This document shows, piece by piece, positions 65-2,564 of a stretch of DNA of 2,564 bases. A program made the position numbers and the translations under genes. The stretch lies in the sequence record PZ049725.1. One strand, 5' to 3'. Numbering within the stretch: the first letter of the stretch is position 1; every line of letters begins with the position of its first letter. The notes beneath the pieces were generated by a model. That model was not told where the DNA came from. It searched no databases and worked only from the letters and a program-made list of their open reading frames with translations. The stretch is from a phage.

Positions 65-961
65 TTAAGCTCCAGCTTCAACTTTAGGCTTCAATACTGC
101 GAAAGCTCCATCTTTTATTGGCAAGTGAGCTAATCTCATAGTTGCTTTTATAGCTATCATGTCATTTTCAGCCAATGAAAGTGGTTTACCATCTCCCATA
201 GTTACTGATTGTAACGTAGCTTCTTTTAATATTTCAAACTCGATACCCTCTCTTATCCCAACTATAGATTTTGACCAATCACCGCATAATAACTCTGCTT
301 TAGTTTTATCAAATGCACCATTTCTAACAAAAGTTAAAGGTAAATCATATAAAGAATTTTCTTTCATACCCATAACCGCTAATTGATTTCCATTTGCATC
401 TCTTAAGTTTCTTAATTCCCTCTTCAATCCGTAATGTCCAGCAAATCCGTTTGGATCTAAGTTTTTATCTTCTATTTCAGCCATAACATCAGATATATCT
501 AAATCTAAAGATTGTGTATTTCTTGTTATTACATTTCCTGCGTCTGTAGCTGATTTTAATACATTTCCTGTGAATGGAGAGTCAACTCCAAATAAACAAG
601 CTTTATCTATTGTTGTATAGAAAGCTTCGGCTATTTGAGGTTTTAATTCTGAAAATACATCTATAGTAGTATCATTTAATTTTTCTCTAGTAACAGGTAT
701 TATTACAGCTATTTTTTTAGCTTGCATTTCTGGGAATATCCAAGAAGCTTTAGAAGTGTTTATTCTTTCAGATTCTCCAACCCAGTAAGCACCTGGCTTA
801 TCTGCCCATACTTGGAATTTCATAGTATCAGACTTCATAGGCTTAACATCTGATAACTGTAATATCGATGAACCTCTTGCTATTTCATCCATTATCCCAG
901 GAGCAACCTCAACTGGAACAAACCCTTTTAAATTATCCTTTAAGTATTTAGTATCCGCCAT
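65..961 (-). CDS. Phage major capsid protein, HK97-fold type (298 aa), no N-terminal delta/scaffold domain
   Basis: Complete ORF from ATG at 959-961 to TAA at 65-67. Purine-rich RBS (AAAGGATGG, complement of ~971-980) lies about 9 nt upstream. It sits immediately downstream of a coiled-coil scaffold-like gene, the canonical scaffold-then-capsid order. The translation (MADTKYLKDNLKGFVPVEVAPGI...) has the length and composition typical of HK97-family capsid proteins of Firmicutes siphophages. Family assignment is from recognition, not from a search. Confidence 0.8.
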   Translation of the reverse strand: MADTKYLKDNLKGFVPVEVAPGIMDEIARGSSILQLSDVKPMKSDTMKFQVWADKPGAYWVGESERINTSKASWIFPEMQAKKIAVIIPVTREKLNDTTIDVFSELKPQIAEAFYTTIDKACLFGVDSPFTGNVLKSATDAGNVITRNTQSLDLDISDVMAEIEDKNLDPNGFAGHYGLKRELRNLRDANGNQLAVMGMKENSLYDLPLTFVRNGAFDKTKAELLCGDWSKSIVGIREGIEFEILKEATLQSVTMGDGKPLSLAENDMIAIKATMRLAHLPIKDGAFAVLKPKVEAGA

Positions 962-980: not shown

Positions 981-1547
981 TTATTTTCTTAATGAATTAT
1001 TTCTGATAGCATCCATGAAAGTTGATTGACTATCATTGCCATCTGATTTGTTATTATTTCTAGCAAAATTTCCTACCCCTCCTGTATCTTGAGGAGTGTT
1101 ATCTTCAAATAGATATTTTTTACTTTCTTTTAGAGAACTTATTTGTTCTTCTAATCCTACTATTTTTCCATCTTCTAACTTCAAGTTTTCTTTTGTTAAG
1201 TACACCTCCAAAGCTTTACTATCTATACACCCAGCTTCTTTCAATGCATCTCTTAATGAATAGCTAAAGTCCTTATCTTCTGCTTCTTTTTTAAGTTTCT
1301 CTATAGTCTTTTCATGTTCTCCAATAGTACTTTGAAGAGTTTGGTTGTCAGAGTTATTCTTCTTTAAAGTTTCTATTGTTTTGCTAGATGTTTTCAATTG
1401 AGTTTCTAATTCTTTTTTCTGATCATTAACTTTATCGAATCTAGCTTTAGGTATAAAGTTTCCATCATCAACCATTATCTTTTTATCTCCAAGTTTTTCT
1501 ACAACTTGGTTATAAAGTTCTTCGCCTAATAATTGTTTTAAATCCAT
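981..1547 (-). CDS. Phage scaffolding protein (coiled-coil; Phage_GP20/DUF4355-like), 188 aa
   Basis: Complete ORF from ATG at 1545-1547 to TAA at 981-983. GGAGG (complement of 1557-1561) lies 9 nt upstream of the ATG. N-terminus MDLKQLLGEELYNQVVEKLGDKK...FIPKARFDKVN followed by a long E/K-rich heptad-like region and an N/S/D-rich C-terminal tail, which is typical of phage scaffold proteins. Position directly upstream of the capsid gene supports the call. Confidence 0.7.
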   Translation of the reverse strand: MDLKQLLGEELYNQVVEKLGDKKIMVDDGNFIPKARFDKVNDQKKELETQLKTSSKTIETLKKNNSDNQTLQSTIGEHEKTIEKLKKEAEDKDFSYSLRDALKEAGCIDSKALEVYLTKENLKLEDGKIVGLEEQISSLKESKKYLFEDNTPQDTGGVGNFARNNNKSDGNDSQSTFMDAIRNNSLRK

Positions 1548-1732
1548 TACTTAGCACCTCCATCTATTTTTATCTTCCCTAGCTTAACTATTATTTCATT
1601 GTCACTATTTATTTCAGCTATAGGATTTTCATATTTTTCAATATCGAGCTTCACAGAAATAGTTGGAGTACTTGGAGTATTTGTAAACCAAAGTGTATTA
1701 TTTGGATTAAAATCAATTTTAATATCTTTCAT
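1547..1732 (-). CDS. Small hypothetical protein (61 aa) in the head module; start reassigned to an internal ATG
   Basis: The track ORF 1547..1771 begins at an ATG with no Shine-Dalgarno sequence. The in-frame ATG at 1730-1732 (MKDIKIDFNPNN...) is preceded by a perfect GGAGG (complement of 1739-1743) with a 6-nt spacer. Its TAA stop (1547-1549) overlaps the scaffold ATG (1545-1547) as TAATG, suggesting translational coupling. No recognisable domain by eye. Confidence 0.55.
   Translation of the reverse strand: MKDIKIDFNPNNTLWFTNTPSTPTISVKLDIEKYENPIAEINSDNEIIVKLGKIKIDGGAK
1557..1561 (-). promoter_or_regulatory. Shine-Dalgarno site (GGAGG) for the scaffold gene, embedded in the 3' end of the upstream small ORF
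   Basis: Plus strand reads cctcc at 1557-1561, so GGAGG on the minus strand, 9 nt upstream of the scaffold ATG at 1545-1547. Confidence 0.6.
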
Positions 1733-1743: not shown

Positions 1744-1787
1744 ATACGTTTTTTAGTTGTAACGACAACATAGATTAAGCTTGATTT

Positions 1788-1836
1788 GTTCTTTTACGCC
1801 TGCAATAGAAGCTAAAAAGGCGCATAAAAAAAGAAC
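1788..1836. repeat. Bipartite imperfect inverted repeat (8-bp outer arms plus 5-bp inner arms)
   Basis: gttctttt (1788-1795) pairs with aaaagaac (1829-1836), and cgcct (1797-1801) pairs with aggcg (1818-1822), around a 16-nt loop with an asymmetric internal bulge. It lies immediately downstream (in minus-strand sense) of the stop of the orphan frame and about 55 nt upstream of the small-ORF RBS. Confidence 0.3.
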
Positions 1837-1941
1837 TTATAAAAAGTCCTTACCGTATTCTTTAAACCATTTATCTAGTTTTGCATTGCTTTCACCGTCT
1901 ATCCAATTTCTAAGTTCCTCGCCTATTTGGTCGAGTTCTTT
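1837..1941 (-). other. Start-less protein-like open frame (34 codons plus stop): candidate 3' exon or C-terminal remnant of an upstream gene
   Basis: Minus-strand frame translates to KELDQIGEELRNWIDGESNAKLDKWFKEYGKDFL and ends at TAA (1837-1839). It is bounded upstream by an in-frame TGA (1942-1944). It contains no in-frame ATG, GTG or TTG. Its composition (G, E, D, W, R) is less AT-biased than the surrounding spacer. It is on the same strand as every other gene and in a different frame from the HNH ORF. Confidence 0.3.
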
Positions 1942-1960
1942 TCAAGCACTGGTATAGTAG

Positions 1961-1992
1961 TACATATAATAAAAGCACCTAATTAAAGGTGC
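1961..1992 (-). terminator. Candidate intrinsic terminator or structured RNA element at the 3' end of the HNH gene
   Basis: Minus-strand RNA forms a 6-bp stem (GCACCU, loop UUAAUU, AGGUGC; plus coordinates 1975-1992) followed directly by a U-rich tract UUUUAUUAUAU (complement of 1964-1974). The HNH stop codon (1983-1985) sits in the loop. The stem is short with 4 GC pairs, so this is marginal. Confidence 0.35.
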
Positions 1993-2564
1993 ATATCCGA
2001 TAAATATTTATAAAATTGTTTTCTAGTTGTTTTTTCACCTTTATATTTGTTGTGAAATTTATTATGACAACTTACACAAAGAGTTACTCCATTGTCTAAA
2101 TCTAATCTTAAATCTTTATGATCATAGCTATCCAGATGGTGTGCCACTAAATTGTATCCATCATCTTTGGTTTTACCACATATCTTGCAAGTATAATCAT
2201 CTCTTTCTCTAACACTTTTACTCCAAGACTTATATCCAAATATTCCACGATTTTCAATTCTATGATTTTCGGATATATTGTTATCATATCTTCCATTGTT
2301 TTTACCACTATTAGCTTTAGATATTTTCCTTTTATACTCTTTCGTCTGCATTACTTTTCTAAGATTATCCCTGCTTTCAGTAGAGTTTAAATAAGTATTG
2401 GCTATGTTTTTAGAATTATTTACAAATGCTTCTCTGTCGGATTTATCTGTATTCTTCCACCAATTATCAAAAGCTTCTTTTCTGCTTCTTGTATTAATTC
2501 CTAATTTTCTTAATTGTCTTGATAAATTTCCACTATCACAATTAAGTTCTTTAGATATCATAGG
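1983..2564 (-). CDS. HNH-family (beta-beta-alpha-Me) endonuclease, likely homing-type; 5' end may lie beyond the window edge
   Basis: ORF open to the right edge of the window; first in-window ATG at 2559-2561; stop TAA at 1983-1985. The C-terminal region (aa 125-170 of the in-window ORF, about nt 2052-2189) contains the HNH signature: C-K-I-C ... N-L-V-A-H-H-L-D ... N-G-V-T-L-C-V-S-C-H-N-K-F-H, i.e. two CxxC pairs, catalytic His and a conserved Asn. The N-terminus (ISKELNCDSGNLSRQLRKLGI) resembles a short helix-turn-helix DNA-binding motif seen in phage homing endonucleases, followed by a basic K/R/N-rich linker. Confidence 0.85.
   Translation of the reverse strand, partial: PMISKELNCDSGNLSRQLRKLGINTRSRKEAFDNWWKNTDKSDREAFVNNSKNIANTYLNSTESRDNLRKVMQTKEYKRKISKANSGKNNGRYDNNISENHRIENRGIFGYKSWSKSVRERDDYTCKICGKTKDDGYNLVAHHLDSYDHKDLRLDLDNGVTLCVSCHNKFHNKYKGEKTTRKQFYKYLSDMHL

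Follow-up and report, generated by a model that had tools for sequence, protein, structure and literature searches.

Homing endonucleases and replaced gene ends

In T-even phages, the seg and mob genes encode free-standing homing endonucleases, whose intron-less homing co-converts the flanks of the target, and in phages of Gram-positive hosts HNH open reading frames (ORFs) reside in group I introns, as in the I-HmuI type of SPO1 and SP82. In fungal mitochondria, elements called mORFs, described in atp6 of Allomyces macrogynus and in atp6, atp9, cox2 and nad3 of Glomus, supply a gene with a foreign C-terminus while its native C*-terminus is found downstream; in Glomus atp6 and cox2, the native copy is not expressed (PMC3630166). 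In phage T4, the MobA HNH cassette occupies one conserved site of an essential gene and brings its own diverged homologous replacement, HomR (bioRxiv 10.1101/2022.08.31.505936); a bypassed insert disrupts the endonuclease target and guards against self-cleavage (bioRxiv 10.1101/2022.08.31.505936; PMC5009743), and some T4-type genomes retain this insert after the endonuclease has been lost (bioRxiv 10.1101/2022.08.31.505936). Here, we describe a 2,564-nucleotide (nt) stretch of phage DNA (record PZ049725.1; hereafter the window) in which a 34-codon frame without an initiation codon lies beside an HNH endonuclease gene. The frame is very probably the native 3' end of a minor head gene, displaced by a free-standing HNH homing-endonuclease cassette.

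The arrangement recalls that of the mORFs: the 5' part of a gene, an inserted divergent C-terminus, an endonuclease ORF and a duplicate of the native C-terminus follow one another, and the native copy is nearest to the copy in an endonuclease-free relative. The full order is seen in two related contigs, L013 and L015; the window itself shows the native copy alone. Unlike the mORF cases, the gene concerned is a structural gene of a bacteriophage, the endonuclease belongs to neither the LAGLIDADG nor the GIY-YIG type but to HNH, and it is not fused in frame to the gene that it accompanies.

Identity of the 34-codon frame

The frame (1941..1840, minus strand) reads KELDQIGEELRNWIDGESNAKLDKWFKEYGKDFL. 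With these 34 residues as the query, tblastn matched the head morphogenesis genes of Clostridium phages phiCD24-1, phiCDKH01 and phiCT19406A (E = 1e-7 to 6e-6). A related viral contig, L003, located via its scaffold protein (90% identical), encodes an uninterrupted minor head protein of 310 residues that ends in ...LPLDHPNGMCTTVPVLEKELEQIGEELRSWIDGESNTKLDKWFKEYGKDFL. At the syntenic position, 31 of the 34 residues of the frame are identical to the last 34 of this protein, and tblastn of the remnant gave 91% identity to residues 277-310 of P0033. The L003 protein is 99% identical to a protein of Paraclostridium bifermentans and matches phrog_1657 over residues 6-309 (E = 5e-88) and Pfam PF04233, Phage_Mu_F, at residues 158-265, the latter with 27.1 bits, just under the cut-off of 29.6. 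More than 100 homologues of 310-311 residues with the same ending are listed, most of them with a precomputed PF04233 match.

The surroundings agree with this identity. Scaffold (PF06810) and capsid (PF05065) genes lie directly downstream of the remnant in the window, and a portal gene lies directly or closely upstream of the minor head gene in L003, L013, L015, L016, L020 and L193. The sequence-only reading of the window had noted that the frame resembles a genuine protein C-terminus, and the match to the L003 minor head C-terminus bears this out. It had further expected hits to the extreme C-termini of portal, minor head or terminase proteins; the C-termini of minor head proteins (Mu F/SPP1 gp7-like) were indeed matched, but in longer members of the family, e.g., those of phiCD24-1 and phiCT19406A, the match is internal (about residues 277-310) because these proteins have extra C-terminal domains. 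Of ~310 codons, the remnant retains the final ~42; it lacks a start codon and is frameshifted at a run of A residues. It is a fragment of the SPP1 gp7/Mu F-like minor head family and not a complete translatable gene.

Composition and length tell much less. The frame contains no in-frame ATG, GTG or TTG, as had been noted from the sequence, and no Shine-Dalgarno-like sequence. Its GC content is 35.3%, vs. 32% in each flanking spacer, 28% in the HNH gene and 31% in the entire window; the weaker AT bias ascribed to it is thus correct in direction, but the difference is slight. Open stretches of at least 34 codons occur in 85% of shuffles of the 211-nt spacer (1772-1982), so the length of the frame is no evidence, and the earlier caution that such a stretch may arise by chance was well founded. 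The codon-usage score, -0.12 bits/codon, is intermediate between real genes read in frame (+0.45 +/- 0.18) and out of frame (-0.80 +/- 0.28), and the antisense frame scores equally. The shuffles and the codon usage would both fit an open stretch of AT-rich spacer that arose by chance and has no protein ancestry. What speaks against such an origin is the 31/34 identity to the end of a 310-residue minor head protein at the syntenic position, the tblastn matches in Clostridium phages down to E = 1e-7, and the ratio of four synonymous to three non-synonymous changes between the remnant and L003; a chance origin is hardly conceivable. Sequence statistics alone are insufficient for the claim of a gene remnant; homology shows that the frame is non-random.

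An exact 30-mer from the frame is absent in IMG/VR, megablast of the whole window against phage records returned no match, and a more distant blastn search of the window matched only Staphylococcus capsid genes.

Boundaries of the remnant

DNA homology between the window and L003 begins at ~1964 (TGTACTACT...), 8 codons upstream of the frame. These first codons of the remnant, TGT ACT ACT ATA CCA GTG CTT GA, encode CTTIPVLE. The A-run at 1942-1939 reads AAAA in the window and AAAAA in L003, L013, L015 and L199. Because the window is one A short, the CTTIPVLE codons are out of frame with the 34 codons that follow, and the same 1-nt deletion creates the TGA that opens the 34-codon frame. On the other side, ~125 nt of intergenic DNA beyond the native TAA contain a single mismatch to L003; the remnant and the downstream DNA are 91-99% identical to this HNH-less contig.

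The edge toward the HNH gene (~1964-1967) is, in the DNA alignments, the junction with the HNH cassette. Only ~18 nt separate the HNH stop from the start of homology. A terminator-like hairpin (1992..1975) overlaps the HNH stop codon (1985-1983), and its T-tract ends exactly where remnant homology starts; this is the sole terminator-like site in 1500-2564, where shuffles give 0.2. Between L013 and the window, the 128-nt remnant has accumulated four differences (three transitions and the 1-nt deletion), compared with two in the other 680 aligned nt (Fisher p = 0.007), an excess that is consistent with relaxed constraint.

The HNH gene stands between the remnant and the place where the rest of the gene would lie, as expected if an insertion had severed the 3' part of a gene, which was one of two origins proposed for the frame from the sequence. 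The other was an exon. HNH endonucleases of phages of Gram-positive bacteria are often intron-encoded, the best-conserved motif of the gene is where the insertion lies, and the frame has no start codon, all of which would suit exon 2 of a minor head gene split by a self-splicing group I intron with the HNH ORF inside it. Yet the models of the group I intron RNA core (Rfam RF00028 and related ones) match neither the window (E <= 10) nor L013, L014 and L015 (E <= 1), and the gaps on the two sides of the HNH gene, ~60 nt between the upstream stop and the HNH start and ~18 nt after HNH, are too short for a core. In the relatives, the upstream gene comes with its own complete and homologous 3' end, which makes the flanks redundant; the remnant lacks the HPNG codons, so that splicing would delete conserved residues; and in the window the remnant is frameshifted. 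An intron is therefore very unlikely, and the proposed exon is not borne out. As in the I-HmuI-type introns, an HNH gene occupies a conserved site within an essential phage gene and has gene sequence to its left and right, but there is no intron RNA core, and the flanking gene parts overlap as a duplication instead of abutting.

Duplicate gene ends in relatives

Two contigs, L013 (HNH 99-99.6% identical to that of the window) and L015 (79%), carry a portal gene, a small ORF, the minor head gene, the HNH gene and the same remnant, beyond which follow a GP20-b-like motif, a gp49_66-like gene and the scaffold gene. Their minor head gene has its own divergent ~45 C-terminal codons and its own stop (the tails are NGLCTTIPVLEKNLDEIGQELKDWVNGKQSPKLDSWFEKYGKYFI in L013 and NGLCTTIPVITKSFDEIGEELNMWINGEPNKTLDNWFKEYGEYFI in L015), and the window segment is therefore a second, native-type copy of the gene end. 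L014, a short contig with the same HNH gene, likewise shows the upstream minor head copy. At the amino-acid level, the remnant is 91% identical to the L003 type and 57-59% identical to the upstream copy of L013 and L015 (57% for L013). The tail type tells the same: the remnant ends in DFL before its stop, as do the HNH-less alleles (...YGKDFL), and the HNH-linked copies end in YFI or HFI. If translated, the relic would yield peptides such as ...ELDQIGEELRNWIDGESNAK..., ELDQIGEELR... and ...EYGKDFL. The fragment is most likely a redundant relic rather than the missing part of a broken gene.

Another case is found in L199, whose HNH protein is only 58% identical to that of the window and is followed, directly behind the terminator, by a different remnant allele, TTIPVLEKELDQIGEELKSWIGGESNSKLDNWFDKYGSEFL, which ends in a stop. 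This remnant begins within 3 nt of the same codon, and its frame differs from that of the HNH gene. The HNH-less, prophage-like contig L004 (9700-9900) joins the upstream copy of L013 to a remnant-type tail where TATGG meets TAAGGAC. The gene end formed in this way reads ...EKYGK followed by DFL and a stop, and the 1-nt-deletion interruption described below is retained; the structure is what one would expect if the two copies of the gene end had recombined and HNH had been lost in the process.

Recombination of this kind, the breakpoint that lies exactly at the target site in L200 (see below) and the 91-99% identity of the remnant and downstream DNA to HNH-less L003 could also mean that the untranslated relic is useful to the element, providing recipient-type 3' homology that aids copying into naive genomes or loss from occupied ones. 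The remnant is missing in four of the seven HNH lineages (L016 and L020; L026 and L191, which show no match downstream of HNH) and is therefore not required. We consider a useful relic unlikely; such a role would add to the explanation as a relic, not replace it.

The fragment might still be expressed, either as a readthrough extension of the HNH protein or as a small peptide from a non-canonical start. In L013 and L015, the remnant lies in the frame of the HNH ORF with only TAA and six sense codons between them, and a readthrough product would span ...SDMHL-x-LGAFIICTTIPV.... However, a shared frame has a 1-in-3 chance of arising, the L199 remnant is outside the HNH frame, the 1-nt deletion in the window places a TGA in the path, the terminator hairpin overlaps the HNH stop, and there is neither a start codon nor a Shine-Dalgarno-like sequence. 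Expression in either form is extremely unlikely. The relic is without a start codon or ribosome-binding site, stands behind a terminator and has lost one A; for these reasons, it is most likely not translated in the window and is decaying.

A proposed route of displacement

These observations suggest how the gene end came to be displaced. A cassette consisting of a replacement 3' end of the gene, a promoter, the HNH gene and a terminator would have been copied into an L003-type genome at the conserved motif ...LPLDHPNG(M/L)C/TT..., with a break near ...AATGGAATG/TGTACT...; the HNH enzyme would be expected to cut or nick within CATCCAAATGGAATG^TGTACT. On the left side, homologous recombination within the gene would have left it ending in the tail of the cassette. 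On the right side, the broken recipient gene would have been attached, from its Cys codon on, immediately behind the terminator. The recipient's former tail (~42 codons, 1964..1837) would then persist as a diverged direct repeat, presumably decaying. The region upstream of the window is predicted to be L013-like, with a TTGAAT-N17-TATAAT promoter, a CCTAATGG...TGT spacer and a gene end of the ...YFI type.

Several points weigh against this reconstruction. The window ends within the HNH gene, and the upstream gene with its replacement 3' end is projected from L013, L014 and L015. The upstream gene of L013 is itself frameshifted at the DHP codons, so that its replacement tail may not be translated either. 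The excess of differences in the remnant amounts to four events only, and the A missing from the A-run could reflect an error in sequencing the homopolymer; were the run AAAAA, the remnant would be open throughout and would share the frame of the HNH ORF across its TAA, like the remnants of L013 and L015. Exact look-ups of the scaffold, capsid and HNH proteins of the window found no exact copy on record.

The relic itself is an ordinary by-product of invasion by a homing endonuclease. In the records searched, it is the first such relic found for a phage head gene.

The HNH endonuclease

The HNH protein of the window is 99% identical to P0001, the 227-residue protein of contig L013. The last 192 codons and the stop are within the window; since P0001 has 227 residues and the gene runs past the window edge, the first 35 codons are missing. 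PHROG best matches of the protein are HNH endonucleases, and at its N-terminus full-length P0001 also shows a weak helix-turn-helix-like match (TnsD, E = 2e-4). Relative to its L013 counterpart, the gene in the window has one codon fewer (SYDHKD vs. SYDTHKD, after the HH of the HNH motif) and one substitution; both lie at window positions ~2122/2299 on the minus strand.

The gene is sporadic at one site: it is present in seven lineages, with 53-99% identity to the HNH protein of the window, and absent from L003, L004 to L012 and L200. A tblastn search with P0001 of 50,697 phage records (E <= 1e-10) matched only HNH proteins of Staphylococcus, Bacillus and Sporosarcina phages, at 33-44% identity, and a scan of IMG/VR for close relatives found none. 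Profile scans of genome and metagenome contigs returned mostly distant HNH domains in unrelated contexts, with L111 as the only useful hit.

We read the protein as a free-standing homing endonuclease. It would cut at the target site, a view that draws on two independent remnants starting within 3 nt of the same codon and on the L200 breakpoint. An HNH enzyme of the packaging type was judged unlikely, given the 227 residues with NUMOD3, the sporadic presence and a promoter and terminator of its own. An intein was rejected: the HNH ORF stands apart and ends at a stop of its own, and the longer minor head proteins (435-506 residues) are extended at the C-terminus and have no internal inserts. As with the T-even seg and mob genes (see also PMC10055350), this is a stand-alone gene with its own terminator, its own promoter (in the relatives) and a sporadic distribution, and mosaic breakpoints occur at the presumed target (L200); unlike it, those genes usually lie between genes and leave no duplicated gene end.

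A sigma-70-like promoter, TTGAAT/TTGTAT-N17(19)-TATAAT, lies outside the window just 5' of each HNH gene (L013 2757-2785; L015 3270-3298; L016 4952-4980; L020 4936-4966; equivalents in L191 and L199). Its spacer, CCTAATGGATTGTGTNN, is an uninterrupted copy of the PNGLC-coding target, conserved amid variable surrounding spacer sequence. Operator-type autorepression is described for I-TevI, and the target copy in the promoter may be an autorepression operator or else a left-hand remnant of the target. In L030 (2080-2520), a more distant HNH protein (48% identical to P0010) with a different, zinc-finger-like N-terminus lies behind an uninterrupted minor head gene with the motif DHPSGMC, which suggests that this enzyme recognizes another target or that the target variant can do without an insert.

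Interruption of the minor head gene in relatives

In all seven HNH lineages, the minor head gene of the relatives, outside the window, is interrupted at the conserved LPLDHPNG codons, between DHP and NG (Table 1). The inserts measure 1-11 nt, mostly 6 nt giving Pro-stop-Pro (CCN-stop-CCN, with matched Pro codons). Among the HNH-less loci fetched via the scaffold gene, nine are uninterrupted and one, L004, has a deletion variant. Pattern scans of IMG/VR found DHP-stop-P in ~23 contigs, many of them HNH-less; in one tight group, 17 contigs have CCG TGA CCN, 11 have a single Pro codon and none has a sense codon between the Pro codons. Purifying selection acts on the ~45 codons that follow the interruption when these are read in their own frame: the pooled proportions of synonymous (pS) and non-synonymous (pN) differences are 0.71 and 0.23, vs. 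0.36/0.30 and 0.24/0.33 in the wrong frames, and pairwise ratios of non-synonymous to synonymous divergence (dN/dS) are 0.05-0.38, equal to those of uninterrupted alleles.

In stop-interrupted alleles only, the 36 nt before the first Pro codon contain a stable hairpin, GGTCAAGG...CCTTGACC (L020 4745-4779; L193 2232-2262; L200 2390-2424), which takes the compensatory form GGTCGAG...CTCGACC in the L193 group. Its energies of -6 to -14 kcal/mol, vs. 0 to -4.3 in uninterrupted alleles, come from related sequences and are not independent observations. The hairpin corresponds to a patch of ~10 codons (RFKVEDI vs. KFDKNKV) that separates interrupted from uninterrupted alleles within one closely related phage group.

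L200 carries the insert and no HNH gene. The 48 nt before its insert are 90% identical to HNH-bearing L020 and 62% to L006, whereas the 135 nt after it are 92% identical to HNH-less L006 and 66% to L020; since these mosaic identities change at the insert, the site is a recombination breakpoint. The region (2380-2580) resembles a tract of gene conversion with its end at the presumed cleavage site, the insert having been acquired without the endonuclease.

According to a 2016 review, no natural in-frame stop hopping is known (PMC5009743). It is quite possible, if somewhat short of probable, that the relatives hold the first natural stop-hops and that the mobile HNH cassette is a second, independent counterpart of T4 mobA/gene 60. 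The matched codons on either side of the stop agree with the signature of a stop-hop, in which peptidyl-tRNA-Pro would detach from the first Pro codon and pair anew with the second, so that DHPNG(L/M)C is restored; candidate sites have the forms CCG TAA CCT, CCT TGA CCT, CCG TGA CCA/CCG, CCG TAG TGA AG CCA and CCC_UAA_C. On ...GGTCAAGGATTTACCCCTTGACCATCCGTAACCTAATGG..., a hop would give DHPNGLC and readthrough DHPxPNGLC. The insert would also protect the DNA from the HNH enzyme. Selection, the matched Pro codons and the 5' hairpin give such bypass and protection indirect support. Readthrough, a tolerated truncated protein and repeated replacement of the tail by recombination are other possible readings of the interruption.

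Reassignment of a stop codon was rejected, as each of TAA, TAG and TGA also terminates ordinary genes of these contigs, and the stretches fetched from the interrupted relatives contain no tRNA genes. Independent initiation downstream was judged unlikely; the L193 type, the commonest, has no in-frame ATG, GTG or TTG after the TGA. For the 1-nt-deletion variant (L013, L199 and L004), no slippery site, adjacent stop, hairpin or plausible decoding mechanism was found. This variant, CCG TTG GA-CAC CC, is present in L004 at ~9745-9760 (the same contig as L227 1487-1511); its downstream dN/dS between L013 and L199 is 0.05, and it is rare, with one contig in IMG/VR.

At the level of sequence, the relatives resemble the T4 MobA/gene 60 system in an HNH gene at a conserved site, a HomR-like replacement, an insert near the target and an insert that outlasts the endonuclease. 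They differ in that tblastn with P0001 showed no sequence relation to MobA, the target gene is another one, and the inserts have 1-11 nt rather than 50 nt; the gene has not become two ORFs with new tails, and the parental 3' end is kept as a relic instead of being deleted. If real, the system is an analogue of T4 MobA/gene 60 and not a member of it.

Layout of the window and neighboring features

The minus strand encodes every gene of the window (Table 1). The GP20-b-like RNA motif scores below the gathering threshold and lies upstream of a scaffold (PF06810) module, the context named in the title of the motif. It is identical in L013 and L015, with the same Rfam match; the L003 sequence deviates at a single base, and L016 and L020 contain similar TTGCAGGCGTAAAAGAA cores. 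The motif is context and lies outside the relic. The 61-codon ORF lies behind a shared ribosome-binding site (GGAGGATA) and in front of the scaffold gene, whose start codon overlaps the ORF's stop in TAATG. The same slot holds an 88-residue gp49_66-like gene in L013 and L015 and is empty in L003; it is a variable 'moron' slot upstream of the scaffold gene.

Table 1. Positions of features in the window and of interruptions of the minor head gene in related contigs.
Feature	Stretch	Position	Strand	Basis or sequence
HNH endonuclease gene with NUMOD3	window	1983..2564	minus	Pfam HNH E = 8e-9, NUMOD3 E = 1.6e-4; cut by window edge
Terminator-like hairpin and T-tract	window	1965..1992	minus	hairpin GCACCTTTAATTAGGTGC 1992..1975; T-tract TTTTATTATA 1974..1965
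Further 8 codons of gene remnant (CTTIPVLE)	window	1942..1964	minus	DNA alignments with L003, L013, L015
34-codon frame	window	1941..1840	minus	TGA 1944-1942 before, TAA 1839-1837 after; translation
Native TAA stop of displaced gene end	window	1837..1839	minus	alignment with HNH-less L003
GP20-b-like RNA motif	window	1745..1813	minus	Rfam RF03003, 25.9 bits, gathering score 36.2, E = 0.009
61-codon ORF (MKDIKIDFNPNN...)	window	1547..1732	minus	no Pfam or PHROG match
Scaffold gene	window	1547..981	minus	PF06810
HK97-type capsid gene	window	961..65	minus	PF05065
Interruption	L020 to L025	L020 4786-4800		CAT CCG TAA CCT AAT GG
Interruption	L191	2290-2304		CAT CCT TGA CCT AAT GG
Interruption	L026 and L193 group	L193 2271-2285		CAT CCG TGA CCA/CCG TTA GG
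Interruption, 11-nt version	L016	4786-4806		CAT CCG TAG TGA AG CCA AAT GG
Interruption (CCC_TAA_C)	L015	3121-3133		CAT CCC TAA CGG G
Interruption, 1-nt deletion	L013 and L199	L013 2605-2620; L199 ~330-345		GA-CAC CC
Interruption, HNH-less	L200	2431-2445		Pro-TGA-Pro insert

Implications

In annotation, a fragment of this kind is to be treated as a gene remnant that shows where a homing endonuclease inserted in a phage head gene and probably where it cuts; it is no exon and no evidence for an intron. The DHPNG-C codon block of the SPP1 gp7-like gene is a recombination hot spot that shuffles the ends of head genes among phages of Peptostreptococcaceae/Clostridia, and the alleles found include HNH gain (L013), HNH loss (L004) and conversion only (L200).

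The recoding-like interruption in the relatives is a more interesting lead than the relic. Dozens of public contigs have a conserved stop that is flanked by Pro codons, lies in an essential gene and is linked to this HNH family. If hopping is true, this would be a short, simple and widespread natural bypass system, and a second case of a homing endonuclease that travels with a recoding 'immunity' insert.

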